Below are positions 364 to 39,693 of a stretch of DNA of 43,603 nucleotides, in pieces; position 1 is the stretch's first letter, and each line of letters begins with the position of its first letter. Made by a program: the position numbers and the translations under genes. The notes under the pieces are model-generated. The model worked only from the letters and a program-made list of their open reading frames with translations, was not told the DNA's origin and ran no database searches. Source of the DNA: Rhizaria sp. SCN 62-66 (taxonomy: Eukaryota); contig MEDY01000261.1 of NCBI GenBank assembly GCA_001724265.1, positions 1 to 43,603 of the forward strand, in the 5' to 3' direction.

Positions 364-3300
364 TTAGCGTCGTAGCGACGCCCTGAACTTACCAAACCGC
401 CTCCTACTCTTACCGCTGTTTTTTGTCTTGCTACTCTTGCGTTTGCTCTTGTTCTTGTCACTCTTTCCCCCACGCGCCCCGGCTAGACGACTGCCATTGC
501 CGACAGCAGCAGGTGTCCCTTCTGTGACGGCGCGCACGAGCAGCTGGAGCGCCTGCGCACGTTCGCCCGGCCAGTCACCGGGGATGCAGGGGCACAGACG
601 CTGAGTCGAGGTGCCGGAGCTGTCGCAGTCCCAGTAGCCCGGATTCGCGTTCAGCAGACACATGCCATCTAAGGGAACCGGATGACCATCGTCGGTTTTG
701 ATGCTGCGCACTTCGTCGGCGACGGTAAGCAGCGGTGGGATCCGCCAATCAAGCCACGGCGACGAGGTTGTCAGAGGACTTACATCCACACCAGCACTAG
801 CATCAACATGTTCACGTGAGGAGGTGTTATATTGTTGATGATGTTGCATCACGGCCGTGACACCATGACGCATCGGCACGTACGAGGGTTTATCGTGGCC
901 TGACACGATAGCGCAACCGCGCTCACAGGGATACACGCGACGCAACGCCTCACACGTATTCACAACCGGCAGTAAACCCTCGTGGCAGGCCCATGTCGTC
1001 GGCGCAGACTGCAGCAGCCGCGAACGCACGTGCGCAACGTCAGCCGCAAACACAGTCTCTGCAGCGGGTGTTCCGACGTTCGGCTCGTTTTGAAGAGTGT
1101 TTGTGGCCAGTGGTGCAACACGCTTTAGACGTGCATGCAACGAGAGCCATTGAGCAGGCCCACCGAGCGCAGCGCACACGTCAGAGCACGAGCGACCGCG
1201 TGGAGCGGGCAGCAGCACAGTTGACAATGGCGGCGGAGAAACGTACGGCAGCGCTGCAGTCACCGTACGCAGCAAACGGCGACGCGCATGAAGCGACAAT
1301 GTACGCTTGTTTGACTGTGACTATACACGTGATTGCGAGTTGGTGATCGACTGGGAAAGCTCGACAAAGACTGCAGCGGTGAACAGCGGCGACGCATCAC
1401 GAGAGCGTGCCTTTAGACGCGGGCGAGTGCGAGTATGGATGCTTGCCTGGTTGGTATGGGCAATTTGAAACGAACGCGTGATTGTGCGTTCATTGAACAC
1501 AGAATCTTGCGTTTTCGCCTCTGGAATAGCGCGTCGTAAGGCGTCAGAAGCATTGTTGTTCAGCGCCAAACCAGCTTCAGCAACACCAGCAACACTCACA
1601 GTATTCCTGTTCATCGCTGCTGATGTCACACTGACGTCACCTGCATGCGAGTCCACTGCTGTGACACTTTCGGTCGCTTGCACGTGCTTACGTGCAGTCG
1701 CAGGCAATGTGGCAACCGCAGCAACAAGAGCCCTCTCGTCAACGTCACGCAACGGAAGAAGCCTTGAAACTGAGTCTAACATTAGCGACGACAGTGGTGA
1801 CAGCCGTTGGTGCGCACGCGCAACTCTATTGGTGTCATTTGTGTTTTTCTTGTTGTGACTGGTAGTGATTGGGGGGAATGTGTCTTCAGTAACACGTGCA
1901 GCAAGTGCAAGCATTGGTGTTGGCGTATAACAATGCGTCGCAAGATGCAGGGCTTTGTTGCCTGCACGCAGACTGCGTGATGACGCACGACACCGCATTG
2001 AGCACACCACAAAAACTGCCGCCGCAGCAGACTCTTGTGTGCCCGCGTTCACAGTATTTGTTGCACCGCTGCGGCTTCCGTTGTTACCGTCATCGTCATC
2101 GTTGTGATTGTTGCCATCGCCTAGCCTGCCGCGGCTGCGCGCACTTATGTCTGCGAGAGTGGGACCCGTAAACAAGCCCGCCTCAGCTGTAGCCACGGCA
2201 AGCGCTACTGCAGCATCGTCCTTGACAGTGTCACCTTTGTCATCGCTTGCATTAGCAGAGGACTGCAGCAACAGACGTGCCGCAACAGTGAATGCATCAC
2301 TGTTGTCGTCCAGTGCAGCAGTCGTGTTCGCTGCACCTCCAAACAGCGCTGCCGCGGCACCAACGCGAGCCTGCAGCGCGCGCCGGGCCGCTGCAGCGAC
2401 ACCAGGCGCGTGCGCGCGCGCTGCGGCCGCGGCGGAGGCTTGGCGTCCCCAGTCGAGCGCATACGGCCCATGCGCAGATGCGACTCGGTGCAGATACTGG
2501 GCGAGAACAGACGCAGCAGCGACGCCGTCTCTGTTAGTATTCGATATAGATAATGTCGTTGCTGAGACTGTGGACAGAGGATGCCACCAGTCCCCACGGA
2601 AAGAACGGAGGCGGCGATGCATTGCCGAAGCACCGGGGAAGCTCGTGTTCGAACTCGAAACACTTGCATACGCAAGGTACTTCGTCCAGTCAAAGTTCTC
2701 CGCATCAGTCTCTCGCGATGACGAGACTGCGTGCGCAAGGGTGGGTGCGTGCATTTGCGCAAGGCAACGAGAAAGACATGACTCGTAGTCGCGACAACAA
2801 CCGAGATCAGAGCGGCAGTCACCGCGAGATGGAGAGCCAAATTCTGAGTTGTTTGATGTGACTTCACTCGCAGCCTTCGGCTTTGTGTCTGCTGCAGCAG
2901 TTGCTGCTGCACGAGTTCCACCATTTGAGGACGCAGACGTTGAGCTTCGTGGCGTCGTTGGCGGGCTCGTGCGCGTGCTTCGGCGAGGACCGCCAGAGCG
3001 GACGGGGAGATAAGTGGCTGGCCCCGAGGTCTCTTTGACGTCACTTGCCGCCGCGGTTGTTGTCGAGGACTCTGCGTTAGCAGCAGCTTGAGTGTTGTCA
3101 GCGAAAACAAACAATCGCCTGGTCGAGCCCACACTCTCACTTGCAGTTGGAGTAACTAATGCAACGTTGGCGCTGATGTCTTGCTGTTGTTTGTGTTTGA
3201 GCTGCTCTCGTTCCCAAGTCAGTGTTAAGCTCTCAGTGTTGGCAGTACTGTCACTGAGCGGCCGTGGATGTGACAGCAGATCTGATAGAGAGCGCAGCTT

Positions 3301-5814
3301 CGCTTGCGCCTGCAGCAGATGTTGTGCTTGCAGTGACGATTGAGAGTACCACGTCGCTGGCTTCCATTGCAGGCCCGCATACGCGTCGTGAGCAACACCG
3401 TCGTTTGGAGGAGACGTCGTCGTACGGGCACTGGGCAACGCAACGCCGCCACCGCCCCACGCCACCAGCTGCAACCGCATCGAATCTGATTCTGATTCTG
3501 CCTGTGACTGCAATTGGGACTGTGGCCGAGAGCCATCAGTGGCACTCGCAGCGTTGCTGTGTGCCGCGCTCGGACAGCAGCCGTTGCGCCGCAGCGCGTG
3601 CAGCGGGCATTCGACGCCGCGCGAGTCGACTGCGCACCGCGCGCCGGACGACCACATGCACCACTCGAGCGACTGCGAGGCGGACTAAGCCTGTGAGTTC
3701 CTCGCAGTTGCATTCACACTCTCTTTGTCTTTGTTGCCGCTCGACGTCGCAGGAGCGCTTGCACTGAAGTCCACGTAGCCACTGAGTCGCTCGCCCGCCA
3801 CGTGCGGCGCGCACCGCGCCGCGGGATCGTTGCCGGCGCGCCAGTCCTCGTTCGCAGCGAGCGGCGCCGTCAGCGGCAGCAGCAGCGGGTGGTGCCAGCC
3901 GCCCGCGCCGCCGCCGCCGGAGAGCCGCAGCGGGCACGATAGCAGGCCCGGGGCCAGCGCGCGCGTCGCGGCCTCGCTTTCGGCTGCGGCTGCGGTCGAG
4001 AGCGCGAGCGGCGGCGGAAGCACTTTCGTTGCCATGGCTGCAGTTTTTGAATCTAAATTATTGGTTGCTGTAGCCGGTGCGCCGAATCGGTGCGCCGCGG
4101 CGGGCACAGCGGCCCCGGTAGCAGTTTCTGTCACAGCAGACACTGCAGCGGCCGCAGCGGCAGCGTACTCGACCGCCAGCGCCCCGGTCGCTGCTAGCCC
4201 CGCCGCCGCCGCCGCCGCCAGGCCGGGCGGCAGCGCGGGTGCAGGCAGCGCGGGCAGAACGAAGGGGAACGCGCGTCCGCCCTTCGCGGCGATTAGCGAG
4301 CCCTTAAGACTAGGCGTTGCAACGCCAGAGGCGCTCCCACCGAGGGCGCTAGCAGTCAAAACACCGCTTTGACTGGCGTTTTGGGTGGCGCCAACGGGGC
4401 ACGTAAGCAGCAGCGGCGCAGCAACCGCGGCAGCAGCAGCGGCGACAGCGGCCGCGTTGGCGTCCGCCGCTGCGACCGCGGCCGCTGCGGCCTTGGTGGC
4501 GGCGGCCGAGGCCGACGGCGGGCGCGGCGGCAGCGGCTGCGGCGGCGCGCGCACCGAGGGCGTGAGGTGCGCCACGGGCAGCGAGAGCGGGCGCTGCAGC
4601 GGCAGCGGCGCGAGGCCGAGCGTGGAGGCGAGAGCGAGCACGGCTGCCGTGGTCTCTGCCGAGTGGCTCTGCACTAAATGGCTCGCTGACTGCGGTTGAT
4701 GCTGAGACGACGCTTGTGACTAGGACTGAGAGTCGCTCAAACCAGTGCCATTCACTGCATCGGTGTGATTGCCGTGGTTTTCACTGCGAAAGTTATCGTT
4801 GTCGTGAGTGACAGGCGTACCGACAAGCATGCGCATCATGAGAGTCGCCAAACTGTCTTTCTCCGCTCCCTTAACTGTTGTCGCAAAGACGGCACTCGCA
4901 TCACCATCAGCAACAACAGCCTTCCTAGCACTCTCGCCGACTGCGGGCGGTGTTGCCGCGGCGACGAACGGGAGCCCTGGAGACAGCAGCCCCTCCGTCG
5001 CCAGAAAACCTGGCACCGCGACCGTGGGCTCCGGGGCCGCCGCAGCCGCCGCGGCCGCGGGCACTGGGGGGGCAAAGCCGCGCCGCCGCGGGGCGGGCCT
5101 GCTGCTGGCGGCAGCAGCGGTGCTCACGGTCAGCGAGTCAGCAGGCAGCAGGAAGGAGAGCAGTGGGAGCAGGGAGAAAAACGGCGACAGCAACGGCGAT
5201 AGCATATGTGTCTGAGAGCCAGAAAAGCCAGACGCAGCGGCAGCAGCAGTGGCATTCGCCTGCGCAATGAGTGCCGCTAGCGACGCGAGACTGCCACTGT
5301 TCCCACTGTTCAGACCACTTGCACTAGCAGCAGCAGCAGCAGCGGTTGCAGCTGTTTCTGCGTCTCTGTATGAATCTGAGTCGATGTGCGCGCCATCAGC
5401 GCCCGCGCTGTTCCAGTTGCCCCACACAAAGGGGAATCTCCACACACTCGCCGCAGTCCCGCCGGCGCCGTTGCCGCTGTTAGCGCTGTACGGCGACGCG
5501 AGCTGGCTCGAAGGCAGTAACACTACTAAGTTTAGCGCGAGGATAGCGAGCACGCACAGAGCCGCGATCAGGCACACGGGCGCGCGCGTGCAACGCAAGG
5601 CAAACAACGCGGCAGCAGCGGTGCGGAGACGCGAGGGTGCTCGTTGGGCCACATACGCGGCGTTGGGGGACGAGGGCAGCATCGCTGCGGAGGGGTCGGC
5701 CACGTCCAATCCGCTCAACGCGGCCTCGTCATCGTCGTCAGCGGGAGTGAAGAGAGAAACAACAGGGGAGAACGGAGGAAAACGGGCCTGCCCCCGCGCG
5801 CGGGGAGCTCGCAT
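364..5814 (-). CDS. SPRING1: SPRING1/C12orf49 (DUF2054)-like type II membrane protein with a C-terminal MGAT5-C-like Cys-rich domain; ~1816 aa read through 3 in-frame TAG codons
   Basis: ORFs 4720-6024, 3685-4674, 1321-3657 and 364-1299 share one frame and are separated only by TAG (4720, 3685, 1321); the last ends in TAA. Domain order: N-terminal TM (VCLIAALCVLAILALNLVVLL); SPRING-type Cys motifs (C..SSGARCAVDSRGVEC...NGCC; CRSDLGCCRDYESCLSRCL; CSMRCRASS...HCY); C-terminal GRSCSDVC...NTCE...C..GC...CL...WDC...RLCPC. This resembles plant/algal SPRING homologs as recalled. Start is uncertain (ATG 5814 or 5682). Confidence 0.72.
1321..1323 (-). other. In-frame TAG, inferred sense codon (probably Gln)
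   Basis: NSQSRV*SQSNKRTLSLHARR; the frame stays open on both sides and the downstream domain has no ATG before GRSCSDVC. Confidence 0.78.
3685..3687 (-). other. In-frame TAG, inferred sense codon (probably Gln)
   Basis: ARNSQA*SASQSLEWCMWSSG; the first Cys of the SPRING domain lies upstream of the next ATG. Confidence 0.78.
4720..4722 (-). other. In-frame TAG, inferred sense codon (probably Gln)
   Basis: LSDSQS*SQASSQHQPQ; falls in the register of an SQ repeat. Confidence 0.78.
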
Positions 5815-6252
5815 GGGGAAACCAGAGCCCGCGGCGGTGGTGCGCGCGGGAGTGGCGAGAGGGTCAGGGGCAAACGGTCGCCTGGGTCTGCACTGCAGCG
5901 ACGCGGATGCAAGAGACTTCGCGAAACAAAGTTCAAGTGAAATAGTTAAAGCAGTAAGTGAACACTGGAAATGCAGGTATTGTAGTTGAAGGACCTTCTT
6001 GTCTGGAGCAATGCGTGAAATCACGGGAGACCGACTGTGGTCTCATAGTCAGGACAGCCACACCAGGTCGATTCGCACCAATCGATGTGAGATTCCCTAT
6101 CGTTATTTAACGGTTGGAGAGTATCCACGGGTTTTCCCGACATGTTTTATCTTTATTATTTTTATAGCACTACAACAGCTCTCGATTATGTCTCACCAGT
6201 CCCTTTTCCCCTTCCTCACACTCTCTCTGCCGCGCTCGTCGCCGCGCAGATC
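5815..6252. promoter_or_regulatory. Probable shared divergent promoter region (SPRING1-like / OSGEP)
   Basis: Head-to-head start codons ~440 bp apart; inferred from geometry only. Confidence 0.5.
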
Positions 6253-7447
6253 ATGTCCAAGCCGTACTTCGTGATGGGTTTCGAGGGTTCCGCCAACAAA
6301 CTTGGTGTGGGCATTGTAAACGAGAAGGGTGAGATCCTGTCGAACCCGCGCGTGACGTACATCACTCCCCCGGGCACTGGCTTCCTCCCGCGCGAAACCT
6401 CTGAGCACCACCGCGCCCACATCCTGGAGCTGACGCACCGCGCGCTCCAGGAGGCCGGGCTGGAGCCCTCGCAGCTGTCGGCGCTGGCCTACACCAAGGG
6501 CCCCGGCATGGGCGCCCCGCTGCAGTCGGTTGCCACGGTCGTGCGCGTGCTGGCGCAGCTGTGGGACAAGCCGATCGTGGGCGTGAACCATTGCATCGGC
6601 CACATCGAGATGGGCCGCGTCATCACCGGCGTCAAGGACCCCATCGTGCTCTACGTCTCGGGCGGCAATACGCAGGTCCTCGCCTACTCTCTTAAGCACT
6701 ACTGCATCTTTGGTGAGACGATCGACATCGCCGTCGGCAACTGCCTAGACCGCTTCGCGCGCCTGATCGACCTGCCCAACGACCCCTCGCCCGGGTACAA
6801 CATCGAGCAGCTCGCCAAGCAGGGCTCCAAGTTCATCGAGCTGCCCTACATCGTCAAGGGCATGGACGTCTCCATCTCCGGCCTTGCCTCCAAGCTCGAC
6901 CAGATTGTCCCGGGCCTCCTCGCCAGCGGCGAGTACACCAAAGCCGACCTCTGCTTCTCGCTCCAGGTATGTGCGCAAACGACGGAAACGGACACATTAG
7001 TCAATGTCAATGGCAATATTATGTCATTTTCCCCCACGATTCCGCTTTATTTCAACATTTGTATTCTTATTTCATTCTATCACTCACAATAATTGTGTTA
7101 TATCCGTGTTTTGTTATTGTTCTTTTCACGCTTCACAGGAGACGATCTTCGCGATGCTTGTCGAGACGACTGAGCGCGCGATGGCGCACTGCGGCAAGAA
7201 GGATGTGCTGCTGGTTGGCGGCGTGGGCTGCAACGAGCGCCTGCAGCAGATGATGGGCACCATGGCGCGCGAGCGCGGCGGCGCCGTGTGCACCATGGAC
7301 TCGCGCTACTGCATCGACAACGGCGCAATGATCGCCTGGGCCGGACTCGAAATGCTCCGCGCGGGCGTCACCACGCCGCTGGAGGAGACCACGGTTACGC
7401 AGCGCTTCCGTACTGACGAGACCGAGTGTGTCTGGCGCGATGATTGA
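6253..7447 (+). CDS. OSGEP: tRNA N6-adenosine threonylcarbamoyltransferase Kae1/OSGEP, 340 aa, 2 exons (6253-6966, 7139-7447)
   Basis: [42 protein letters not shown] (HxxxH), [31 protein letters not shown] across the intron, [19 protein letters not shown]; stop TGA. Confidence 0.97.
6967..7138 (+). other. Spliceosomal intron in OSGEP (172 nt, phase 0)
   Basis: CAG|GTATGT...TTCACAG|GAG; AT-rich; removal restores conserved [11 protein letters not shown]. Confidence 0.95.
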
Positions 7448-7836: not shown

Positions 7837-9477
7837 TTATTGCATGAACATGTGCCACGCCTCCTGGATTCCGCCCAGCCCGTCCATCGGCGGCCTCTCC
7901 CTGCCCGCGCCCCACTCCTCGTGTCCGAGCCCCTGCTCCTCGGCGGCCTCGGCGTTCTCCCGCGCCTCTGCCAGCGCCTGCGCCCGCTGCGCCCGCGCAA
8001 GCTCGTCCTCGTCCTCGTTACCCTCAGCGCCCTCACCCGGGGGAGCGAAGGAGGCGCCTTCGCCGGCGGCGGCGGGCTGGCCCTCCACCGCGTCGTTCGC
8101 CTGCTGCTGCCGCCGGGCGCGCGCGTCCAGGTGCTGCCTGCGTTCGCGCTCCCACTGCTGCTGCGCGTCCCTCTGTCGGCGCCATTCGCGCTCGCGCTGC
8201 CGCGCGCCCTCCTCGCCGTCCTCCTCGCGCTCGGCCCCGGCAAGGACTGCACACGCGCGCGCGCAGTGGCCCGACACGACCGCGGCGAGCGAGAGCACTC
8301 CGAGCAGCCCCGCGGCGGGCGGCGCGACCAGCTCCGGCGCCGCGGCCCACAGCGCCCACATCAGCGCCAGCGCCGCGCAGGTCAGCACGGGGAACAGAGA
8401 CTGCGGGCGCTCCGCTAGGCGGGCCAGCCGCGCGCCCGCGGAGCGGTACGCGCGCGACACGGGGTTCGACGACACTGCAGCACGAGCAGCAGCAGCACCA
8501 CCACCACCAGCAACAGGGAAAGGGACAGCTGCTGGCCCAAGCGCGGGCGCGGACGCAGGCGCAGGCGCGGGCGCGGGCATTGAGTGCGAAACTACGCGGT
8601 TGCTCCCGTTAACGCCCGCTCGCGGCGCGCCCGATGCGGCGATGGCGGCGGCGGCGGCGCGGGCGTGGGCCGCGGCGGCCGCCATGCCGAGGCTGGGTTG
8701 GGCGGCGGACATGGCCGCTGCGCCGTTGGAGAGCCCGTGGCGCTGGCGCAGCCCGTCGCCGGCGAGCGCGGCAGCCACGGCGGCGCTGTTGCTATCACTG
8801 GCCAGATCGCCAGCATCGGCAGCCGCGGCAGCGACTGCAGCAGCAGCCGCAGAGGCAGAGGCATTGGAGGAGTCCGAGGCAGGGACGGCGTTGCGGGAGA
8901 GGTAGTGGTGGTAGCGGTCGGGGTACGCGGGGTCAACGGGGGCCACGTTATCGTCGTCACCAGAGTCGTCGCCCTCGGCACCATTGCGACGACGGCGGCG
9001 ACTTGCACTGGCGCGGGCGGCGTTGATGTCGATGTCTGCGTTGTCGCTGTCGCCGGCGTAGGGACGGGCCGCGATCGCAGCTGCGAGCGCGGCGGGACCC
9101 ATCGGCCGGCCACTGCTGTTGCTGCTGTGCACAGCGCTGCTGTTGCGGCTGAAATCGCTGTTCTGCTGCTGTTCGTGGTGGTTGTAGTCATTGTAGGCGG
9201 GGGGATTCACTTCTTCGACGATGTGGACGTGAATGACGGCTTTGTCAGTCAGGTTAGGGATCTCCGACACGGGCGCCCGATCGGAGACGCGGCGCCCGAG
9301 GTAGATGTACGTCAGCCGGTCGCCGTGCGCGACGTTATCGGCGAAGAGCTCGGCCGTAGCGCGAGAGAGCGTGTCGTTGGGGGACAGCGCCATCGGGCGC
9401 TTCTGAGGGTGGCCGATCACCATGAAGTTCACGATGATGTCACCTGCGGCCGCCATTGGGGACGCAAACTCAGACAT
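7837..9477 (-). CDS. Ubiquitin-like domain plus two transmembrane helices, TMUB1/2-like, ~546 aa
   Basis: N-terminal UBL pattern (IIVNF...NDTL....ELF...RLTYIYLGRRVSD...IPNLTDKAVIHVHI); hydrophobic hairpin LFPVLTCAALALMWALW-AAAPELVAPPAAGLLGVLSLAAVV; charged tail; stop TAA. Confidence 0.7.
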   Translation of the reverse strand: MSEFASPMAAAGDIIVNFMVIGHPQKRPMALSPNDTLSRATAELFADNVAHGDRLTYIYLGRRVSDRAPVSEIPNLTDKAVIHVHIVEEVNPPAYNDYNHHEQQQNSDFSRNSSAVHSSNSSGRPMGPAALAAAIAARPYAGDSDNADIDINAARASASRRRRRNGAEGDDSGDDDNVAPVDPAYPDRYHHYLSRNAVPASDSSNASASAAAAAVAAAAADAGDLASDSNSAAVAAALAGDGLRQRHGLSNGAAAMSAAQPSLGMAAAAAHARAAAAAIAASGAPRAGVNGSNRVVSHSMPAPAPAPASAPALGPAAVPFPVAGGGGAAAARAAVSSNPVSRAYRSAGARLARLAERPQSLFPVLTCAALALMWALWAAAPELVAPPAAGLLGVLSLAAVVSGHCARACAVLAGAEREEDGEEGARQREREWRRQRDAQQQWERERRQHLDARARRQQQANDAVEGQPAAAGEGASFAPPGEGAEGNEDEDELARAQRAQALAEARENAEAAEEQGLGHEEWGAGRERPPMDGLGGIQEAWHMFMQ

Positions 9478-9943
9478 ATTGGCTGTTAACGTTTTAGGGC
9501 GTCGGTTCCAACACAAGTCTCGGGATGTGGCGTTGCTTTTACTCGAGGCTGCTTGACTTGTTAAGGCCTTCGAGAAGAAGGAATAGTCAAATGAGATTGT
9601 GAAAGATAATGAGGTTTTCTAATAATTTAATAAGAAGACCACATAAAAAGTGGAGAGATACACATTATATGCAAACGATCTTGCGAGTAACGGTTGTTAT
9701 AGCCCACACAAGCTGTGTCTGTATTGGTTTTGTCTAGGTAATCGAGTTCGACCATACACGCGCAGGCGTTGCTGACAAAGCACTCTGTTCACCATCCCCT
9801 ACTGCTTCCCTGTGCTCCGCAACAACACAAAGCTGAGTGACGCACAGTAGCAAGCCAAGATATTGCGTATACAAAGTTGAAGTCAGCGCACATAAGGTCC
9901 CTCGATATGTTTTACACATACAGCTTCAACTCCAACTTTTAAC

Positions 9944-11341
9944 TTAAAGCTCGTCCTTGGCCTCCTTCTTTTCCTCGGTCGCCGCCGCCGCCGCCGCGGG
10001 CGCCTCAGGCGCAGGCACGGCCCCGCCATCGGCCTGGGGCTCGTCCTTGACAAGGTAGAACTGGCGGATGATGTTTGCGCGCATCATGAGCTCTGCGCGC
10101 GCCGCAACGGTGATCGACTCGCTCTGGGCCATGCGGCGCAAGCGGTCCAGCTCCGTCTCCACGAAGCCCATGCCCTTGCTCACCACGGCATTGCCGTAGA
10201 GCGGGTAGTAGCGCGCCATCGCGTTGCCGTCCTCGACGGCCTTAGCGGCGCTGGCCTTGATCACCGGCAGCGTGCCCTGCGCACCCTTGATGTCCCCATT
10301 CAAGACCTTGATCGAGACCTCGTTTGCGAGCGTGTCCAACGTCGCGTCGCGGCCCGCGCGCTGGGTCACGCCGCCGCCGACCGTGCGCTCCAGCCCAGCG
10401 ACGTCGTTCATGTAGTCGACCAGGTCCGCGGCCGCGCGCGAGCCGTGCTGCTCCTCGGGGAACTTGCGCTCTGTGCCCGCGCGGAAGAGCTTCAGCGTGG
10501 GGAAACCCTGCGAGATATACGCAAGCAAAGATGAAGAGGAGATAGAACAAGTGAGAATTATAGAATACAAACTAAGACCATCTATATAATTATCTCATTG
10601 ATGAGTTTGGCTGGTTTCGAAAAATAAGTTAAAAAAAGTTGCACAGAGAAAGTGACGCATGCGTACCTGGATGTCGTACTTGGCGGCAATCATGCCGTAC
10701 TTGTCGCCATCCAGCTCGGCAAACACGACGGAGGACTCGCCCTCGAAGGCCTTGGCGGCGGACTCGTAGCCGGGCGCCATGCCGGTGCAGTGGCCGCACC
10801 AGGGCGCGAAGAACTTGACGAGGACGTTGGCCTTGGGGTTGAAGACGACCTAGTCGAAGTTCTCGTCCGTGAGCGTGACGACGGCCTTGACGGGCGCAGT
10901 GATCACGCCATTGAGCGAAAACTTCTTGTTGAGGAACTTAAGCAGCGCAGCCGCGTTGCGCTTGCCCTCATACTCGATACCGCGGAAGTCGGGGGAGGAC
11001 TTGGCGGGGAAGATCTTGACGGTAGGGAAACCGACAATAGAGAGCCGCTCCATGAGCGGCGACTGCTCGTTGCTGACCTGCGCGACCGTGATGCCCTGGC
11101 GGCGCAGAGCCCGGGCAACCTGCTCGTACTCGGGGATGAACTCCTTGCAGTGCTGGCACCAGGGGGCCGTGAAGGCGATCACCGTGGGCTTGTCCTGCGC
11201 GATGGTGGCCTCATAGTTCTCAGGGGTGAGCTGCAGCACGCCCGCCGCCGCGCTGCCGGCGAGGGCGAGCGAGGGCAGCGAAGTGAAGAGCACAAACACG
11301 GCACAAAGCGCGGCGAAGATGACGCCAGAAACTCCACGCAT
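9944..11341 (-). CDS. Protein disulfide isomerase, a-a'-ERp29c (PDI-D/TigA-like) type, 412 aa, 2 exons (11341-10667, 10507-9944), internal TAG at codon 164
   Basis: Signal peptide; thioredoxin a (APWCQHC...GFPTVKIF); a' ([29 protein letters not shown]...DIQ|GFPTLKLF); ERp29c-like helical domain (YY...KGMGFVETELDRL...RANIIRQF); C-terminal KDEL then TAA. Confidence 0.93.
10508..10666 (-). other. Spliceosomal intron in PDI (159 nt, phase 0)
   Basis: CAG|GTACGC...TCTCGCAG|GGT; AT-rich; restores KYDIQGFPTLKLF. Confidence 0.93.
10850..10852 (-). other. In-frame TAG within the PDI a' thioredoxin domain
   Basis: [28 protein letters not shown]; spacing matches the usual LT..NFDxVV......VLV.[8 protein letters not shown] pattern with one residue at the TAG. 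Confidence 0.9.
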
Positions 11342-16499: not shown

Positions 16500-16550
<51 letters not shown>

Positions 16551-18984: not shown

Positions 18985-19022
<38 letters not shown>

Positions 19023-25694: not shown

Positions 25695-28600
25695 TTAGAT
25701 GAACTTTTGAGCAGACTGTGAGCCCTTACTCTGCACAGCCTGGCGCTGCCTTTCAAGCGTCTTGATCTTCCTCTGTGCTTCGCGACCCGTTGCCGAAGTC
25801 GCCTTTGCCCACTCCAGTGCTTCCGCAGCCGATGACACGGATCCACCGTCGGGCAAGTATTCGGCGGCCCCGCGCACGCCTGCACGCAGCGCGAGAGTGC
25901 GCAGTTTGCGTGTGAGCGCAGTGGCAATGCGGCCTTCGCGTGACTGCACCGCGTCCCAGTCGGAGGCGTCCAGCCACAGCTGCTCATCGGCCGGCGCCGC
26001 CGCCACGCCGACCACAGCGGCTGCACCGACGGGCATCACGGCCGCAGCAGGCACTGCGGACCGCCGCGCCGCCGCAGCAGACGCGCTCGTCGATGCAGCG
26101 TTCGCGGCGGCAGCAGCAGCAGCCGCACTAAATCCGCGCGCACCACTCGCCGGCGTGCGCACTGGGCCACCGAGCACGCCTGCACTCGCAGCTGCGTTGC
26201 TGGCGGCGTTGGCGTTAGTGCCTGCAGCGTCAGCGAGCAAGAAAAGACTATCCTCCTGCCGGCCGCCCCACTCCTTGGGGTCGACGCCGACACCGCGAGC
26301 GCGCAGCTTGGCGGCGGCCTGACGCATCTGCTGGATCTGCTTCTGCTGCGCCGACGTCTGTCGCGCGGCGTGCTGATCCTGCGCAAAGAGCCGCATCCCG
26401 GGCACGGGCGCCTCTTCTTCCTCGGTCGCGTTGATGCACCGCACCGGCGCTGCCGCGGCGTCGAGTGTCGCGCCCCAGTGGCTGCTCAGTCCGCGCGCGA
26501 CCGCGGGGTCGAGCCGCATCGGCCCGCCGCCGCGGTGCGACGTGATGCGCGGGGACTCGTCGTCGTCGTTGTCACCATCGTTCGCTGCACCGCGGCCGCG
26601 ACCACGGGCGCGCGTAGGGGCGAGCTAGGCCGCGACTACGCCGCGCATGCGCTCGACCATCGCGGTGACAGCAAGTCGGCGCTGTGCAGTTGCCGCGGCA
26701 GACGTCACAGTGGCGCTCGAGGCAGCACCCTCAGAGCCGGCGAATGCGACTGAGGGCGGGACAGAGAGTGCAGCGCGGCCATGCGTGGGCGACAGCGGCA
26801 GCGCGACAGTAAGACCAGAGTTCGCAGCCGTAATTGCATCAGCCCCGTCAAGAGCCTCCGTCTTCACTGTGACGGATCTAGTCGCGGCATCAGATTGCGG
26901 CTCACCGAAGAGAGCAGCGGAAGAAGCCGAGGGCGAGTGAGTATGACTGGGAGCTCGATGAACCTTCGGCGGAGCCAGGGTCTTGCTCGCGTTCTTGTCC
27001 CTGAGCACCTCGCCGTTTCCGTCGTCGCCACCATCATCACCAGCACCATCGTAGTCGTTGCCTTTTTCGTCGTCTTCGTTGTCATCGTCCTCCTCCTGAG
27101 TCACCACACTAGTTCTGAACACCATCACTGCGTCCGCCGCGGCAGCCTCTGCGGCAGCGCGCGCCTCCGCCCGAGCTGCCGCCTGCGCAGCAGCGTAGTT
27201 GGGGTCCTGCGCGCGCTCACGCGCACGAGATCGCGCACCGAGCTTGTCGCGCTTTGCGCGCTCGCGCTCCTTGCGCAAGCGCTCAGCCGCGGCCTCAGCG
27301 CTCTCAGTCGCCGCACCACCGGGGCCCGCGCGCGCGCCACCGCCCATCGCGGCCGCCGTCGCAGCGGCCACAGCTGCATGTAGCGAGCCCAGTCCACCCG
27401 CGTGCGCCGCGCCACCGCCGTGCGCGGCAGCGGCTGCCGCGTGCGCCTTGGCTGCGGCCGCAGCAGCAGTCAACGCGGCAACGACAGCGTCCGCCGAAGG
27501 CAGCTGCTGTTGGCCCGCAACGTTTGCCCCCGCGCCAGCGCGCTGCTGCGATGCCTGCTGCTGCAATTGTTGTTGCTGCGGCAGGAATCCGCTCGCGCCG
27601 ACGTCGATCGGTGTGCCGTCACCGCGCGCCACAACCCTGGACTTGGTCTCGCCCATGTAAGTCGCAATGGGACGCGCGTTGCCGTCGGCATCGGCCTCAA
27701 CAGCGTCGGCGTCCGTTGCAAGCGAGCGGAAGATCTGGGCCAGCGCCTGCAGGTCCGCGGACAACAGACCGCGCTGTTGCCGCGCAGCAGCGAGGCGTGC
27801 GCGCGCGGCATCCAGCTCCACGTTGAGCCGGATGGCGTCGCCATCGCAAGTCTCGGCCTCGAGCAGCAGCAGCGAGCGCGGGGATGTGTTCGCGTCTGCG
27901 GTATCGGGCCGCGCTCTCTCAGCCCCCTCCTCGTCCTCTGCATCCGCACCTGTGTCAGCCCCAGGAGCAGGAGCAACAGATGATCTGGGCGAGAAGGAAG
28001 GCTTCCCGTCAGCGTCCTGATGAGAGTCAGCAGCAGAGTCGTCGGTCCCACGCAGCCTGCGCTGCCAAGCACCGCGCTGCTCCTGCTCCAGCTCAGCCAC
28101 CTTAGCCCTCGCGGCGGCGGCCCCAGCGCGCGCGGCGGCGATCTTGGCAACTGCCGCGGCCTCCCGGGCCGCGTCTGCGTCGACGGCCGCGGTGAGCACT
28201 GCGACGCGCTCGAGCCCGCGCACGAGCAGCACCATCACGCGCGTGGACCGCTGGGCCGGCAGCGCGCGCAGCAGGTGGCGCACGCGCAGCGTCAGCTCGG
28301 CTGCGGCCACGACGTCGCCTGCATCGGCGCGCGCGCGGAGTGTATCGATCTCGCGCAGCGTCGTCGCGGCAACGCTCTCGTCTCCGCCCGCGCTCGCGGT
28401 GCCGCGAGACGAGGCGGCCAAAGCGTCAGCGTCGGCGTCACTGGGCGCAGTGGCCAGCAACGCGGGCAGCCAGTGGCGCTGCATCGGCGACGGCTCGGCG
28501 GGCAGTTTCGCGCCCTCCACGGTGCCCGCCAGCGCCGAAATCGCACCCGCGGTGGGCGTGAACCCGGCGTGGAAGGACGTCGAGGGCGACATCGGCCCCA

Positions 28601-31600
28601 TCGCGGGCTCATTCAGCCCGGCAGCGGTTGCAGCCGCCGCGGCCGACGAGGAGACGACGACGGCGGCCGGCGCGCGCGACGGGTACATCAGCTGCAGCGA
28701 GCGCACCTGCGGGCGCGCAAGCGCGGCCGCGGCGGCGGGGCCTAGCGTCGCGATGTCGGTCGCAGTCGAGGACGCCCACGGCAGCGGCTCGGTCCCCGAG
28801 GCTGCACGCGGGCGCAGCCGGGCTGACGCGCCCGAGCCAGTAGCGTTGCTGCCTGCGCCAGGGACGACCAGTCCGAGGCCGAGCCCGCCGGCGGGTGCGG
28901 CGCCGGCGAGCGTGCTGGTGCCCGGCCGCGATGAGTCGATGTACAGCGGCACGGTCGTGAGGTCGCTCGTGCGCGGCCGCGAGAGCGAGTGCGACGACTG
29001 GAGCCGCCCATCGCCGCCCGCGGAGCCTGTGCGCGGCGTGGCGCCCCCGCGCGGAGTCCCGTTGCGGCGGCCGTTGGGCGTGCGCGGCGTGGCGATGCTG
29101 GCGCGGTCACCGGCGGCTCCAGAAGCAGCGGTGGCGTCGCCCTTGCCGCCCGGCGTGTAACCGAGCGAAAACACGGAGAGTTGCGCCAACAGAGCGGCCA
29201 CCTTCTCTGGGTCGGAGAGGTCGACGCCGCCACGGCCGCCCGCGCCGTTGTTGTTGCCGTTGCCGCTTTGACTGGTGGACGAAGAGGCCCAGCCCATTCC
29301 ATCGAGCTCCGCCTCGCGCCGGCGCTGCCGCTCGCGCTCAGCCTCAGCAGCGCGCGCGCTTTGCAGCCGCAGCGCTTGCGCATCCTTGGCACTCATCGCG
29401 CTTGCAGCAACCGCGTTCGCAGCCGCAGCGGCTGCCGCACTCTCTGAGCCTTCACTGTCTTCCGCAGCGGACTTCGAGAACTTCGCAACAGCGACATGCG
29501 AATTGGTTTGGTTTTCACGGAGAAGCTCTGCGATGGACTCGCGCGCCGCCTCTGTATCAACGTCAGCGCCAGTCTGCGCCTCAGCAGCGCGCAGAGCAGC
29601 GCGCGCCTGCACGAGCTCTGCAAGCTCATTTTCTGCAGCTTCGCGGCGCGCGCGGATACCCGCGAGTCGCTGCCGCAGCGCCGTAAGTTCCGCTGCGGCC
29701 TCTGCCCGTGCAGCGCGCCTCGGGCGCCCAGTCAGCCCTGCCGCAGCGGCGACGGCGGCAGCGCTCTTGCGCGCAGCAGCGGGCAGTTCAACAACACCGC
29801 GCGCGCGGCGCGAGACGGCCGCCCCGCCCGAGAGCGCGGCGACGGCGGCGGAGGAGATGCGCTCGGCCTCGTCAAAGCCCTTGCCGCCCGCGCCGGAGAG
29901 CTTGAATGCGCTGCCGACCCAACGCGACTTGTCACTGCGCCGCGCCAGGAGCCCGAGACCCATCGCCGCGCCGCCACCGCCGGTGGTCGCAGCGCTGGCC
30001 GAGCCGCCGGCCGCGCCGCCACCCGCGCCGCCGCCGCTGGCGCCCCCCTCGGCCATGCGCAGCGCGTCGCGACGCACGGCGGCGAAGGTCGAGCTGCGCG
30101 TCGGGAGCGCCTCGACCACTGCGACGAGCGGGCCCAGGCCAGCGGAGCGCATCGCACGCACGCGCGCGCGCGCACCGGCGTCCTGAGTCAGGTCTGACCT
30201 CGCGCCGCTGACGCGCTGCGCAGCGCTCTGCTGCTGTTCGGCAGGCGCGGCCGTCGCGTTCGTCGCCGCAGAGTGCATGCGCGAAAGCACGTGCGGCTGC
30301 GGCGCGGTCGGGCGGCCGGGCCGCACGTCCGGGAAGGCCGGCAGCGAGAGCGCAGCGGCGGCGTGCGACAGCGTGCGGTCCGCCGCGAGCGCCCGCGTGA
30401 TGTAGTGTTGCGCGCGGTTGCTCAATAGCGCCAGGAAGCGCGCCGCGGCCGCGCGCTCGGTGTCGACGCGGGACGTCCAGCCCAACGCAGCCAGCGTCGC
30501 AGCGGCCGCCGCTTCGCCAGCCGCGGCGTTCGACGCAGCAGCGACTTCGCCGTTAGTATCATTCGCCACTGACTCCGGCACCGCAGTGGTGTGGCCGTGA
30601 CCGTCGGGGGCGTTGGCTTCGGCTTCAGGCAGCAGCACGGGCCGGTCGAGGAACGGGATCGCGTACGGCACCGTAAACAGCGGCTGCTTGGGCGCAACCG
30701 AGGCCAGAATGCCCGTCGCCTGCGCCGCAAGCACGCCCGCGTTGGCGTCCGCCGCCGCGCTGGCCGCGGCCCTGCGGGTGCGCGCCGTGCGCACCGCCGC
30801 CGTCTCGCTGCGCGCCTGGACCGCGAACTCGCTCGCGTCGCGCGCGCGCCGCGTCGCAAGGTCGCGCGCCGTCGCCGCGGAGCCCAGTGCGCCCGTCGCC
30901 GACATCGCTGCAGTACCAGTCGCGGTTCCGGACATCTGCGTCCCGGACGGGTTGCCGAGAGTGCTCATGGAAGCCGAGCTGTGCAGCAGAGTGGAGGCCG
31001 TTGCCTCGGCCGCGGCGGTGCGCAGGCGCGCGAGCGGGTCTGTGAAGTGCAGCTGCGGCGGTGGCACGGCAAAGGCAGCCACGGAGCGCGCGCTGACTGA
31101 CTCGAGCCTTTCATCAACGCCACCATGACCGCTACTGGCGTCGGTGCGCATGTAGAAGGGCTCGTTCGCAGCCTCAGCTGCGGCAACGGCGGCGGCGGCG
31201 GCGCGGGCCCGGTTGCGCACGCGGCGCGCCGCGGCAGCGCGTGCGCTCGCGGCGGTAGCGGACTCGACGGCAGCGTTGTGCTGTCCGCCGCGCCCGGTGT
31301 GTTGGTGGCGCACGCGCGCAGAGGCGCTGCCAACGCCGGCCGTGTTCGATTTAAACGCAGAGCGGTCCAGGACGGTCGCAGCAGCCAGCGCAGCCGCGGC
31401 AGCGGAGGAGGTACCGGACGCAGACGCCGCGCCCTCAGCCCCGTCCGCAGATGCACTGAGCGCCGCGTCGTCTTCGTCGTCCTCGGTCGCCGCGAGCTTC
31501 ACGTCGCGCCGCGCACCGCCGTAGAACAGCACGTCCGCAGCCGAGGCGGGCGCGCCGCCGGACTTGAGCTGCGCAGCGGCCCACGGTGCCCAGTCCCCCG

Positions 31601-34600
31601 ACTCGGCGAAGAGCGGGTCTGCCGCGGCCCAGTCGGGCAGCGGGCCGCCGCTCAGACGCGCGCCGCTTCGGCCACCAACAGCGACACTGTTCGTGCTCTT
31701 GTTCATATTCGCGTCGGCGCTCGCAGAGCTACTTGTGGCAAGGCTTTGCGAGCGCTCGAGCACGAAGCGGCGGCCGATGGGCGGCGGAGAGTCGCTGCCG
31801 CTATCGCGATCCTGGTCGCCCTCGCTGTTGATGTTCGCGGCCGCGCTGCCAGAGGTGGCGTTGATCCAAGCGGACACGGTCTCGCGGTAGCCGGTCACGC
31901 CGGGCGGCGGCGCGGGCAGCGCGGGCATTTCCAGCTCCAGCTCTATCTCAGCAGACGCGGCAGCAACAGGCGCAATTGAAGTTGCAGCAGAGTCAGAGAT
32001 TGTGTGCTGCTCAGCGTCATCGGGCTGTGTTATGACAGCATCATCGGTTTCAGTGCCGTTAGCATTGCAACTAACGGTGTCGCCGTCAGTGATGGCGGCG
32101 GCGTCAACGTCGGCCGCTGCGGCTGAGATAGTCTCGCCAGATTCAGCTACAGCCTCAGTCTCAACTTCTTCGTTCTCACCAGCTTCAGCAGCCGCGGCGG
32201 CAGCAACGGCGGCCTCTGCTGCGGCGTTATGCGCAGCGTCAAGTGCCTCGAGCCGCGCAAACTCAGCCTCCATCCACCGGTCTTCCTCGTCTTGCTGCTG
32301 CTGCCGCTGATCAGCAGTGAGTGCGCGCGGACTGCCTGCAGCGGCTGCCGAAACAGCGTCGCCCGCGTTCTCATCGCTGTTACCAGCGGCTGCAGCACTG
32401 TTGCGGCGCGAGGCGGCGGTACTGCTGGCCCGACTACCCTTCGTGCTCTTGTTGTTTGTATTAGCGGCCAGGTCTGTCGTTGACGGAGGGTTGCTCAAGC
32501 CGCGCTTCTTCGGCGTTGCCTTGTTGCTCGAGCTCTCGCTGACAGCGGTAGGACTGCTAGCCTTGCTCTTTGAGCCTGCGCTCGTGCTTGCTTTAGCATC
32601 GGGGGCATCATCGTCGTCATCCGCTTCCTCTTCCCCTTCGACGATCGCTCCCATCGACCGAGCGCCAGCGTGCTTCTGCTTCTGCTGCTCTTGTTGCTGC
32701 GGTTGCATCTCCTCGCAGCTCGCGTCTTCCGCGTCGTCCTGCGGCGTCACTAGCCCGGCCCGTGCCCCGCTCGCGCTGCCCGCGTAACCGTGGCCGTGCC
32801 CGCGGCCGCTGTCGCCCGCGTGTGCGAGCGCGCGCTCCGCCCGGAGGAAGCCCTCGACCTGGCCCAGCCGGTGTTGCGCGCCAAGCCTGCGCCAGATGAT
32901 CGCTTCCACGGTCTGCATGAACCCGTCGTACGCCGCCTTGGACGCGCGCAGCGCGCGCATGCGGGCCTCCACGCGCTCGCGGGCGCCGCGCGCACCCAGG
33001 GCCCCGCCGCCGCCTACCGCACCGGCGCCAGAGGGACCAGAGCCGGTCGCTGTAGCCAGAGCGAACCCCGTGTTACCGGTGCTTACAAGCGAGTCCGCAG
33101 CAAGCGCGCTCGCGCTGCTGCTGCTGCTGCTGCTACCGTCATCAGCGTGAGTGCGAGTCGCTGCCTCGCTGCTAGAACCGCGCTGCGCCGAAGCAGTCGC
33201 GCCCTCGGGCCTGCGCTTGGCGCCCCTGCCCCCGTTCACCGGCGGCACGGCCTCCACGGTGAGCTGCACCACCACGGTGCTGCCCAGCGCGCCGCCCGCC
33301 GAAGCTGCCAGCGCGAAGAACAGCGCACCGGGCAGCGCGAACGCGGGGTGGTTCGCCGGCAGCGTCAGCGCGCCGCTCGCCACCGTGCCCGCGGCCGCGA
33401 CGACCGCAGCCAGCGCCGGCGCCGCCGCGGCAGCAGTGCCCACAGCGTCAGCGCCACTCGCGGCGGGCATAGTCGGCGAGGCAGTGTTGGCGTTGGCGGA
33501 TGGGGACGCGGAGCCGGGCACAGAGGCGCGGAAAGACCATGGCGCGCGCGCCCGCCTCGGGTGCGGCGCGTCCCTGTCAGCACACACGCTCACGGTCATC
33601 CCCGCCAGAGCCTCCGTGGCCGCCGCCACCGCCGCGGCCGTCGACGACGACGACGACGAGTGGCCGTGGGCGCCGTTTGCGGCCTGCGCGAGGGCGGGCG
33701 GCGCAAGAATGGCGGCCTTGAGCTTGAGCGGCGCGTTGGCGAGCCCAGGCAGCTGGACGCTGGCGTACGCCGTGCCGCCGCGCGGGACAGACACGCGCGC
33801 GGTCCACTTAGTCGCGCCCGGGACACTTACTCCGCCAGCGCCGTGCTGCGCGGCCAGAGCCCCGGCGGCGGCGGCGGCGGCGGCGGCGCTGGCGGCCGGG
33901 ACGAGGACGACGTGCTTGGGCTTGTTCGCGGCGTTGGCTTCAACAATACCGCCAACACTGCCAGCGCCACCGAAGCCGCTTTGACCCGGCGAACCGAATG
34001 GAGAAGAGAAGCCGCCGTGGTAGCCGTGGCGGCCGCGGCGCGCGCCGCCGTAGCCGTCACCGCCCTCATAGTCATCGTCGTCGTCATCGTCGTCGCTGTC
34101 GTCATCATAGTCGTTGCTGTCATCGACGTCATCGTCGTCTTCGTCATCCCCGTCGCCGTGATGCTGGTCCCAGTCCCCGCCGTCGCGCCTGCCGCGCCGG
34201 GACGCGGCCACGGCAGCCGCCGCGGCGGCCGCGCCCGCCATGCTGCTCTGGTGGCTAGCCATGTCCTGCGTGACAACGTCGACGGCGCGCATCAGCGCCG
34301 CAAACCGCTGCGCCCTTGCCCACGCGGCCTCGGGCGCAATGTCCGTGCTGCTAAAGCCCGCAGCGGCGGGCAGCGGCTGCAGTTGCGCCGCGAGCAAGCC
34401 CGGCGCGGGCACTGTAGCTGTGGCTGCTGCTGCGGCAGCGCCCGCAGTTGAAGTCGTAGTCGCAGTGGCCACCGCGCCCGCGCTCGTGACTGAGGCAGAC
34501 GGGGCCGTGAGGGCCGAGGGGGAGAGGACTGCGCCCGTCGCGGCGCCGGCGTTGCTGTCTGAGATGTTGCTCTTGTTCTTGCTGTTGTCCTCGAGACGAG

Positions 34601-36206
34601 AGGAGGCGCGAGACTGTGGCTTCTGCGACTGCAGCTGCTGAGCGCCGCTGTCAGTGGCCTTGTCGCGCCCGCCTAGAGCAGCCGCAACGGCCACGGCAGC
34701 GCCCGCAATCACGCGATCGCCCTCGTCATCGTCGTCGTCATCGTCACCATTGACTGCACCGCTGCCCTCACTCTTGCCGTTACTAGCGGAGATGTCGACG
34801 TTGACTGGCGGCACGGCGACGTTCGCGGCCTCAGCTGCCTGCTTGACGTCGAACTCCACAGCGGGCACGACCTGCTCCAGCGCGCGCAGCTGCTCCGCGC
34901 CGCGCTCCCACTGCGCGCGGAGCCGCTGCACGTACCCCACGGCCGCCGCGCGTTGCGCCGGGTCCGCCAACGCGGGGATCTGCGCGCGCGCGTGCGCCGC
35001 GCGGGCCGTCATGTCGCGCAGAAAGCCCCGCAGGCGATGCAGGTGCGCGGCCAGGTCGTCGCGGCGCGCGGCGTGCAGCGCGAGCCGCACGGCGGGCGCC
35101 TCGGCAGACGCTGATGCCGACAAGGCCGCGGTGGCGGCGCGGGCGGCGGCGGCGGCGGCGGGCGTGGGTGCGGCTAGCAGCGACGCGAAGGCGGCCTCCC
35201 ACTGGCGCAGGCGAATCGACACGGGCGCGGGCAGCCACACCGCGGCGGCCGGGTCGCTCGCCGCCGAGGCCGACGTCGCGGCGGCCGCGGCGAAGGACAG
35301 CGCGTCGAAGGACGACGCGGCCGCCGCGGCGCCTGAGACGGCAGTGGCGTCATCGCCGTTAAGCGCGAGCAGTGGCGCCAAGCTGGCCGCCGCCGCGCCC
35401 TGCCGCGCGCCGCCGCCAACCTTGCTCCCGGCGCCCGCGGCGGCGCCGGCGCTGTTGCGCAGGTGCGGGAGGTAAAGCGGGACGCGGTCCGCGGCGGCGG
35501 CCGAGACTGGCGCGGCCGTGTAGAGCGCGGTGCTAGTAACGCCCGCGGTCGCGGCCGCGCGCGCCTGCTCGAGCAGCTCGCTGGGGAGGTTGGGGAAGGG
35601 CGCCGAGAGCGCGCCGTCGTCGTCGGCCGCCGAGGCCTGCGTGACGCCCAGCACGTGACGCAGATATCCGACGAAGAGGCGGAGCTCGCGGCGCGCCTGC
35701 GACGGCAACAGCAGCGTCTGGTCGGACGAGATGCCACCCACGGCGCGCGCGGGGGGCGCCGACGCCGACGCAAGCGTGCCCGGGGCAGCGCCGGGGCCGC
35801 CGGAGCCCGCTGCGCCTGCGTCAGAGGCCGAGGTAAAGGCGGAGGATGAGGAGGAAGAGGAGGCAGAGAGCGCGGGTAGTGTGGCGGGGTAGGGCTGACG
35901 CGGGTCGATGCCGACGCGCGCGGAAGACGACGACAAGGCGCGAAGTACGCCCGGGTGTGCGCCGTAAGCTGAGACAGTCGGCGGAGCGGCAGGACCATAG
36001 GGGGCGCGGCCAGCGCCAGCGGCAGAGGCGGCTGAAGCAGAGGCAACAGACGAGGACGGCGCGGGCAGGGCGTGCTTGTCGGCTGCAGTGAGGCCGGCGG
36101 CAACGGCGGAGGTACGCGGAACAAAGCCACGCGGGTTGGCGCGGTCAAGCCCGGCGAGACGGGACGAGGTGGCCCCGTGGGGCGCCGCACAGGGGCGTGG
36201 AGGCAT
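25695..36206 (-). CDS. Giant Ala-rich protein of unknown function, ~3503 aa, apparently intronless, internal TAG at codon 3194
   Basis: The 3193-codon ORF stops at TAG (26625), but the frame continues in the same GC-rich coding style (VVAA*LAPTRARG...GGPMRLDP) into ORF 25695-26519, which ends in TAA at the switch to AT-rich sequence. Several coiled-coil-like stretches; no confidently recognised family. Confidence 0.75.
26625..26627 (-). other. In-frame TAG, inferred sense codon (probably Gln)
   Basis: RMRGVVAA*LAPTRARG; 309 further open codons to TAA. Confidence 0.75.
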
Positions 36207-37157
36207 CTCCAGCTGTAGCGGTTATATCACAGCCCAGAAACGGCTGGCTGTTGAGGTGGTAAAAGAAGGCTGGAAGTGAAGTGGGAAAAACAAAAGAGTT
36301 AAGGTAAGTATTTGGAATAAAAACACGCAGTGGCTGTGCGTTTGACGGACATTGGAGGGCGTGGGAAGACATTCTCATAATTAGGGTCAAGCACAGGGGC
36401 CGAAAAAACGAAGCGCCACTCGATTGGGCAAACACCCTCAAGTTTGTTGCCAACCCGCAATTTCAGCTCGATTTGTTCTCGCTAGAAGTGGTGCCACTCG
36501 AAACACGCATGTAAGATCGTTAGAACCATAGTTTATGTATGATTTGGTGATTTACTGCGCGCCATTCACTGGTCCTGTCACCGTGTATTCGCCAATAAGT
36601 TGCAGCCCTTTCGCACGAAAGGCGTTCTTGGATGACGGCTGCGAGGAACTTTAAGAGCTTTTTTTGCCACCGGGCGCGCACTGTTACTTACGAGTTTGAT
36701 TTAATTTTTCTATTTTATATCTGTTTGCATTATTCGCTTGCTACATGCACACTTTGCGCGACATGTCGCCTCAATTACAGCAACTTTATCGTACTCGCTT
36801 CCCTTTGACCCTACTTCCATTCTCTAACTCTGTGCACGCGACATGTTTTCTCCTTCTTGGTATAGCCCCTACTTTTCTTTCCAGCTCGCGTTATTTTCTT
36901 CAACCTGATTTTGGTACCCGCGGTTGAGCTCTTTTCCGCCCGTTTCCGCAGGTCTTCGCTTCCGCCTCGCGCCATCTCATCCTACACTGAGCCGGGCATC
37001 AAACCGTGCGTTGTCGGTCTTTCCGCTCCGATCTCTCGGTACCGGCCTTCGAGACCCCCCGTTTCCCCACCCCAGTCCCCGGTCCGTGCATTGCACTCCC
37101 TGCACACCGCCTGCGCTTCCCCTCCGTTTCGTCCCTGTTGTCTCTCTGTGCCAGTGT
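36207..37157. promoter_or_regulatory. Probable divergent promoter region (giant protein / HTH protein)
   Basis: Head-to-head genes ~950 bp apart with a lower-GC core. Confidence 0.45.

Positions 37158-39657: not shown

Positions 39658-39693
<36 letters not shown>

Follow-up and report, generated by a model that had tools for sequence, protein, structure and literature searches.

In-frame UAG codons in a GC-rich eukaryotic contig suggest a code in which UAG is sense and UAA and UGA terminate

Lineages in which UAG and UAA differ in meaning number only a handful (PMC5304391; PMC11687900). UAG alone has been reassigned to Gln in Iotanema and to Leu in the rhizarian exLh (PMC5304391), to Gln or Leu in Protocruzia and phyllopharyngean ciliates, and to Ser in Scotinosphaera (PMC11687900). 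Here we describe a further candidate in contig MEDY01000261.1 (Rhizaria sp. SCN 62-66, assembly GCA_001724265.1), whose full length of 43,603 nucleotides (nt) is referred to below as the window. This DNA carries a gene for a protein disulfide isomerase (PDI) with an in-frame TAG at codon 164, and four more in-frame TAGs occur in two other long open reading frames (ORFs), giving five sites in three genes on one contig. As judged from the sequence, there is good support for translation of TAG at the PDI site and at one other site (TAG 1323), and translation is plausible at the three remaining sites. The pattern is probably a UAG-only code variant of a kind known from other lineages, and we consider it likely that it reflects an organism-wide code, in a GC-rich eukaryote, with UAG as sense and UAA and UGA as terminators.

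The pattern of NCBI table 15, found in Iotanema spirale, Protocruzia tuzeti and some phyllopharyngean ciliates, resembles that of the window in having UAG as sense, UAA as stop and a predicted CUA decoder (PMC5304391; PMC11687900), and the PDI exon translated under this table is open, with Q164. However, the window is GC-rich (0.6-0.75 in coding stretches), its UAGs amount to 5 in ~12,400 codons without demonstrating an assignment to Gln, and it contains no ciliate or fornicate marker. In the rhizarian exLh and in phyllopharyngean metagenome-assembled genomes from Tara Oceans, where UAG means Leu, UAG alone is likewise reassigned and UAA is the dominant stop (PMC5304391; PMC11687900). Whereas in exLh 71 genes contain a total of 384 in-frame UAGs, which fall on conserved Leu positions (PMC5304391), UAG is far rarer in the window, and the informative column, that of the PDI site, is without a hydrophobic residue in 29 homologs; UAG as Leu was rejected on this ground. 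Scotinosphaera, a green alga in which UAG is Ser and UAA is a stop, also has UAG alone reassigned (PMC11687900), and the window shares with it a Ser in the two closest PDI homologs and Ser-rich contexts around the other TAGs, but those TAGs lie in the Gln phase, not the Ser phase, of Ser-Gln repeats. Amoeboaphelidium protococcarum and others, in which both UAA and UAG are Gln, provide examples of non-ciliate eukaryotes in which a stop codon stands for an amino acid (PMC5304391). In the window, by contrast, TAA terminates, standing directly after KDEL and at six of eight gene ends, and its position after KDEL led us to reject the possibility that UAA is also sense. A full-text literature search, with most subscription journals outside its coverage, found no published GC-rich non-ciliate eukaryote with UAG as sense.

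The PDI gene lies on the minus strand and has two exons (Table 1), with its ATG at 11341..11339 and a predicted full length of 412 residues when the TAG is read through. Its predicted architecture is that of the PDI-D proteins (ERp38/TigA-like), with two CxxC thioredoxin domains, an ERp29-type D domain, and endoplasmic reticulum (ER) targeting plus KDEL. Pfam recognizes two thioredoxin stretches in the product (PF00085, E=1.9e-40), the second of which needs translation of the TAG to be complete, and, in exon 2, an ERp29 C-terminal domain (PF07749, E=9.6e-11), the match covering positions 14-95 of the 95 in the profile. The N-terminus is hydrophobic, MRGVSGVIFAALCAVFVLFTSLPSLALA, and was judged by eye to be signal-peptide-like. 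Exon 1 closes with ...YDIQ at a splice donor CAG/GTACGC and exon 2 opens with GFPTLK; the homolog P0002, which has no intron at this position, reads ..GIQGFPTLKFF.. uninterrupted across the junction. The same combination of two CxxC thioredoxin domains, ERp29 domain, hydrophobic N-terminus and KDEL characterizes the PDI-D subfamily (ERp38/TigA of fungi, PDIA6-like with an ERp29-type D domain), and among the named matches are 'disulfide-isomerase erp38' and 'tigA', which align at 33-37% identity. The window's protein departs from this subfamily in its first active site (CQHC, not CGHC), in a longer Ala-rich tail before KDEL, and in having TAG as codon 164. All 29 aligned homologs have G at the variant position of the first site (WCGHC).

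An initial annotation of this DNA had singled out the PDI site because the TAG falls 17 codons before WCGHC within a thioredoxin domain, and this is borne out by the sequence and its translation, with 16 residues between the TAG and the motif. The interval it named (10790-10885) contains the TAG and most of WCGHC, which is the second active site, the first being WCQHC. A word-indexed search of a protein collection returned 126 matches at E <=0.001 among 1773 candidates, from which we aligned the 29 listed proteins that have at least 337 amino acids (aa) and contain PF07749; the short fragments P0063 and P0069 and all matches without PF07749 were excluded. The annotation had also held that there is no room for a small intron at the TAG, and the alignment of these PDI-D homologs is indeed ungapped on both sides. 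For example, P0003 reads TLTPENFDSVVFNAKANVLV across the column and aligns with the window free of gaps, and the structures of PDIA4 and TXNDC5 in the PDB align through the same position, with E and D there. Because conserved residues flank the TAG without a gap, no intron could excise the codon without the loss of some of them.

The part of the PDI gene downstream of the TAG had been described as intact, and we find no decay in it: the second active site, the intron, the ERp29 domain and the terminal KDEL-TAA are all in place. Identity to P0002 is 74/128 (58%) upstream of the TAG, 40/61 (66%) downstream of it in exon 1, and 86/158 (54%) in exon 2. For exon 1, the corresponding values are 56/126 and 32/61 with P0003, and 46/126 and 34/61 with P0004. 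Since identity does not fall past the TAG, and the active site, D domain and KDEL are kept, the downstream part is most simply explained as being translated. The 163-aa size foreseen for a product terminated at the TAG matches a public protein call, P0001, which has 163 aa and ends in ...DENFD. This call is recorded on seven contigs, which, as far as that record goes, speaks against a one-off assembly error.

The identity of the amino acid is less clear than the fact of translation. The PDI site is the only one of the five with an aligned column, and across the 29 homologs this column reads E10 S5 K5 T3 N3 D2 Q1, with Ser in both of the closest (58% and 45% identity). It had been proposed that the position is polar or charged and hence favors Gln over Leu or Trp. 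The tabulated column upholds the first part, being polar in 29/29 homologs and thus arguing against Leu, Trp and Tyr, but it does not point to Gln in particular. In the SPRING1-like ORF described below, the three TAGs lie in the CAR phase of degenerate (TCN-CAR)n Ser-Gln dicodon repeats; they thus look CAG-derived, which is a mild independent hint for Gln. Gln appears to be the most likely meaning of UAG, an assignment in which our confidence is evenly balanced, and Ser and Glu are the main alternatives.

The four additional in-frame TAGs came to light when frames delimited by TAA and TGA only were scanned for TAG inside long ORFs. Three of them interrupt a single frame (364..6042) that encodes a Cys-rich, SPRING1-like domain and, at the C-terminus, a domain with a resemblance to the end of GT18, with long low-complexity inserts between the two. 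Apart from these TAGs the frame is open, while the other five frames of the stretch contain 29-66 stops each. An exhaustive phmmer search with query residues 700-1892 identified public calls that are cut exactly at the TAGs: P0246 ends at TAG 3687, and P0243 and P0244 are split at TAG 1323. In a relative, the single ORF P0245 (405 aa) can be aligned with the window to either side of TAG 1323, with an identity of 63% for 64 aa upstream of the TAG and 46% for 255 aa downstream. In the more distant homologs P0247, P0253 and P0259 the SPRING1 domain and the C-terminal Cys-rich domain are found within one protein of 418-509 aa. P0247 and P0253 match the window in collinear blocks, which cover window residues 1076-1096 and 1344-1374 before TAG 1323 and 1599-1820 after it, and in P0253 the blocks that flank this TAG adjoin, one ending at residue 246 and the next starting at 247. 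Thus, in the SPRING1-like gene too, the conserved C-terminal domain lies behind a TAG.

Several other features of this ORF were noted. The protein is giant (~1,800 aa), with the Cys-rich blocks that elsewhere make up proteins of 420-510 aa spread apart by long Ala/Ser/Gln-rich inserts, and hydrophobic sequence at about residues 150-180 hints at a membrane anchor. P0245 begins partway through the region of homology, at about window residue 1340, and the relative's gene may also be interrupted upstream, whether by a stop, an intron or the end of a contig.

Table 1. Positions of the in-frame TAG codons and of the PDI gene and SPRING1-like ORF in the window.
Feature	Position	Strand	Description and basis
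PDI exon 1	10667..11341	-	225 codons: thioredoxin domain 1 and most of domain 2 behind a signal-peptide-like N-terminus; translation, Pfam
PDI first active site WCQHC	11147..11161	-	Variant of CGHC; translation
In-frame TAG, PDI codon 164	10850..10852	-	Ungapped, polar column in 29/29 homologs
PDI second active site WCGHC	10787..10801	-	W 17 codons after TAG; translation and alignment
PDI intron	10508..10666	-	159 nt, GTACGC...TCGCAG, 35% GC
PDI exon 2	9947..10507	-	187 codons: end of thioredoxin domain 2, ERp29-type C-terminal domain (~10058-10303), KDEL (9947-9958)
PDI terminator TAA	9944..9946	-	Directly after KDEL; GC 0.68 to 0.45 across TAA
SPRING1-like ORF	364..6042	-	1892 codons free of TAA/TGA, ending in TAA (364-366)
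In-frame TAG, codon 441 of ORF 364..6042	4720..4722	-	Context TCT CAG TCC TAG TCA CAA; frame openness and composition
In-frame TAG, codon 786 of ORF 364..6042	3685..3687	-	Context TCA CAG GCT TAG TCC GCC TCG CAG; frame openness and composition
In-frame TAG, codon 1574 of ORF 364..6042	1321..1323	-	Context TCG CAA TCA CGT GTA TAG TCA CAG; between collinear homolog blocks
In-frame TAG in 3508-codon ORF 25695..36221	26625..26627	-	Followed by 309 more open codons to TAA; weakest of the five

The GC1/GC2/GC3 pattern of the 3508-codon ORF runs on across its TAG (26627). A homology search with the C-terminal 561 residues across this site gave no support, with none of 8000 scored candidates (proteins of 660-2100 aa) at E <=0.001. 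The ORF as a whole has no Pfam match and is an extremely Ala-rich, low-complexity sequence.

How genes end in the window provides a separate line of evidence. Eight genes were counted, namely the SPRING1-like gene, Kae1 (two exons), ORF 7837..9618, the PDI gene, a gene for an EGF-repeat protein, a giant UCH-domain gene, the 3508-codon ORF and ORF 36909..41452, and their terminators are TAA in six cases, TGA in two and TAG in none. Spacers and introns are AT-rich, at 0.3-0.45 GC, whereas coding stretches are in the range given above. In the 150 nt past the terminators of the eight genes GC is 0.27-0.45, as compared with 0.61-0.76 past the five in-frame TAGs. Because TAA directly follows KDEL and ends six of the eight genes at a GC-to-AT boundary, we take it to be a terminator. 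The absence of TAG from eight gene ends is a small sample, with a chance of ~10% if TAG makes up ~25% of stops, an assumed figure. In a symmetric control, lone stops with at least 300 open codons on each side were TAG in five cases, TGA in one and TAA in none; in all six frames of the window there are 390 TAG, 970 TGA and 384 TAA triplets. Two other measures were of limited use: a codon-usage coding score strongly flagged only the PDI TAG and says little on the TAGs of the other genes, whose codon bias is different, and total ORF length under alternative codes with one stop as sense is not discriminating in such GC-rich DNA.

Several observations weigh against an organism-wide UAG-as-sense code. 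The sample comprises five sites in three genes on one contig, and the absence of TAA and TGA in frame follows from the way in which the ORFs were defined, those codons having served as their limits. Two of the six long-flank stops in the control (TGA 22323 and TAG 23532) are antisense to the giant UCH ORF and spurious; frame openness is thus weak evidence in DNA above 70% GC, and TAG 26627 is of weak standing. Codon usage in the window (CAG 351, CAA 90, CGA 36, TGG 96) leads to a null expectation in which random nonsense transitions produce TAG with a probability of 0.67 (CAG 351 + TGG 96 versus CAA 90 and CGA 36 + TGG 96), such that five TAGs in five events have p ~0.13 and do not decide the matter alone. 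UAG accounts for only ~1% of would-be Gln codons, which is low for a settled reassignment, and the PDI column does not fix the amino acid, given one Q in 29 and Ser in the closest homologs. Moreover, a tRNA with a CUA anticodon is absent from the 43.6-kb window, in which ARAGORN made one call (Ala-GGC, inside an ORF) and Rfam gave no matches. That call, of 97 nt at 35055-35151 on the plus strand, lies inside and antisense to the 3508-codon ORF, has no corresponding Rfam tRNA and is probably false. Likewise, no eRF1 gene is among the genes identified in the window.

Under an organism-wide UAG-as-sense code, the PDI gene would yield a 412-residue ER enzyme with a signal peptide, domain a0 (CQHC), domain a (CGHC), an ERp29-type D domain and KDEL, and the first helix of thioredoxin domain 2 would carry residue 164. 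The decoder would be a tRNA with anticodon CUA, which would pair with UAG but not UAA and would most likely derive from tRNA-Gln(CUG). The release factor eRF1 would be expected to have weakened recognition of UAG, plausibly at the third-position G. This argument from a CUA decoder and eRF1 has been put forward for Iotanema and for exLh among the Rhizaria (PMC5304391).

The rarity of UAG in the window suggests that such a reassignment is either young or served by inefficient decoding. It is possible, albeit unlikely in our estimation, that the window comes from a poorly sampled, GC-rich, non-ciliate lineage in which UAG-only reassignment is at an early stage or one that is still ambiguous. TAG would then have been lost as a terminator and be reappearing at ~0.04% of codons, mainly via CAG-to-TAG changes, with new TAGs arising in low-complexity stretches that tolerate them and at one exposed residue in an essential enzyme of the ER. 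At such a stage decoding might still rely on near-cognate tRNA-Gln together with an eRF1 that is weak on UAG, with no dedicated suppressor tRNA yet in place.

Alternatively, the standard code might apply, and the TAGs might be real nonsense alleles or consensus errors, with C-to-T changes at CAG in a heterozygous, population-derived or damaged-DNA assembly leaving null or truncated gene copies. The identity of the codon is what such a process would produce, since TAG is the nonsense codon expected from codon usage (P ~0.67 per event), and the three TAGs at the expected CAR positions of the Ser-Gln repeats have the appearance of CAG-to-TAG changes. Nevertheless, we find this explanation improbable. 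It requires that nonsense changes arose five times while ~37 kb of coding frame stayed free of frameshifts and of TAA or TGA in frame, and it does not account for protein conservation in PDI that is equal on the two sides of the TAG. Five of 356 CAG-type codons would correspond to an error rate of ~1.4% at these codons, which is implausible for a consensus sequence. Furthermore, the identical 163-aa call is recorded on seven contigs, and TAG ends none of the eight genes.

This last observation also bears on a second explanation that retains the standard code, in which the TAGs are sites of leaky, programmed or context-dependent readthrough and each gene produces a short and a long isoform. For PDI, the products would be a 163-aa single-domain protein without KDEL and a minor amount of the full-length enzyme. 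Near-cognate tRNA-Gln mediates readthrough of stop codons in eukaryotes whose code is canonical (PMC13192750), and this mechanism, as well as the low frequency of UAG (5 in ~12,400 codons), which is expected if the codon is decoded inefficiently, would fit such a scheme. However, the 90 nt past the five TAGs share no RNA structure (Z-scores of -1.9, 0.6, 1.5, -0.3 and 1.4), and the base that follows TAG varies (G, T, T, T, C). A shared readthrough-stimulating structure was rejected accordingly. In addition, the catalytic CGHC site, D domain and KDEL of PDI, an ER foldase, are located behind a TAG, and so is the C-terminal domain that is conserved in the SPRING1-like protein. With TAG as the terminator of none of the eight genes, we regard leaky readthrough as quite improbable.

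Correction at the RNA level, by U-to-C editing of UAG to CAG or by an unconventional excision that leaves an mRNA without the stop, would suit TAGs that look CAG-derived but is scarcely credible, because excision at the PDI site would remove conserved residues from a gap-free alignment and no TAG-spanning intron candidate has the composition of a genuine intron. Such candidates have at least 52% GC, compared with 35% for the verified PDI intron and the approximately delimited Kae1 intron, and there is no candidate at all for TAGs 1323 and 26627; an intron that removes the TAG was rejected on the combined basis of composition and the gap-free PDI alignment. Removal of stops by systematic U-to-C editing is not known to be an established process in nuclear mRNAs.

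The neighboring genes provide some information on relatives of this organism. Kae1 matches environmental relatives at 77-87% identity, the best named match is to the rhizarian Amorphochlora at 74%, and named animals and plants are at ~70%; the Amorphochlora match may be a weak taxonomic hint. Kae1 homolog P0124 (87% identity) and PDI homolog P0002 (58%) are found on one 30,144-bp contig of a relative, and their counterparts in the window are at 6253-7447 and 9944-11341. Hence, this gene neighborhood is conserved in the relative. A Kae1-based search of genome contigs revealed no relative of the window, with the best 80 of 192 matching stretches all being archaeal-type Kae1 at no more than 51% identity.

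Elsewhere in the window, a UCH domain is split over ORFs 14799-17246 and 17764-25473 on the plus strand, which implies one gene of >3,300 codons with a probable intron at ~17.2-17.8 kb. Close to its end, this giant gene (14799-25473) contains a ubiquitin-like segment, and its stop codon is TGA. Antisense frames over it and over ORF 25695..36221 also run on for hundreds of codons without a stop, a confounding factor for any inference from ORFs. Another plus-strand ORF (38912-41452), with Gly/Met-rich runs, a poly-Gln tract of ~19 consecutive Q and no Pfam match, is probably joined to ORF 36909-38951 via an intron. The contig ends (43537-43603) in a (GACC)n tetranucleotide repeat after a T-run, which may explain why the assembly stopped there. 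A scan for bacterial promoters and terminators around the PDI gene carries no meaning in a eukaryote.

Nuclear codes that deviate from the standard one are rare, and separate meanings for UAG and UAA are rarer still; a further case would add to these. Standard-code gene calling has already split or shortened proteins of this organism in public collections, as is evident from the 163-aa PDI stub and from the SPRING1-like gene, which is represented by three pieces. The PDI site offers a clean test of UAG decoding. If UAG is indeed sense here, a GC-rich genome in which the codon is still very rare bears on how reassignment begins, whether by codon capture or through an ambiguous intermediate. Moreover, if the reassignment is at an early stage, this organism would represent a natural snapshot of codon capture in progress.

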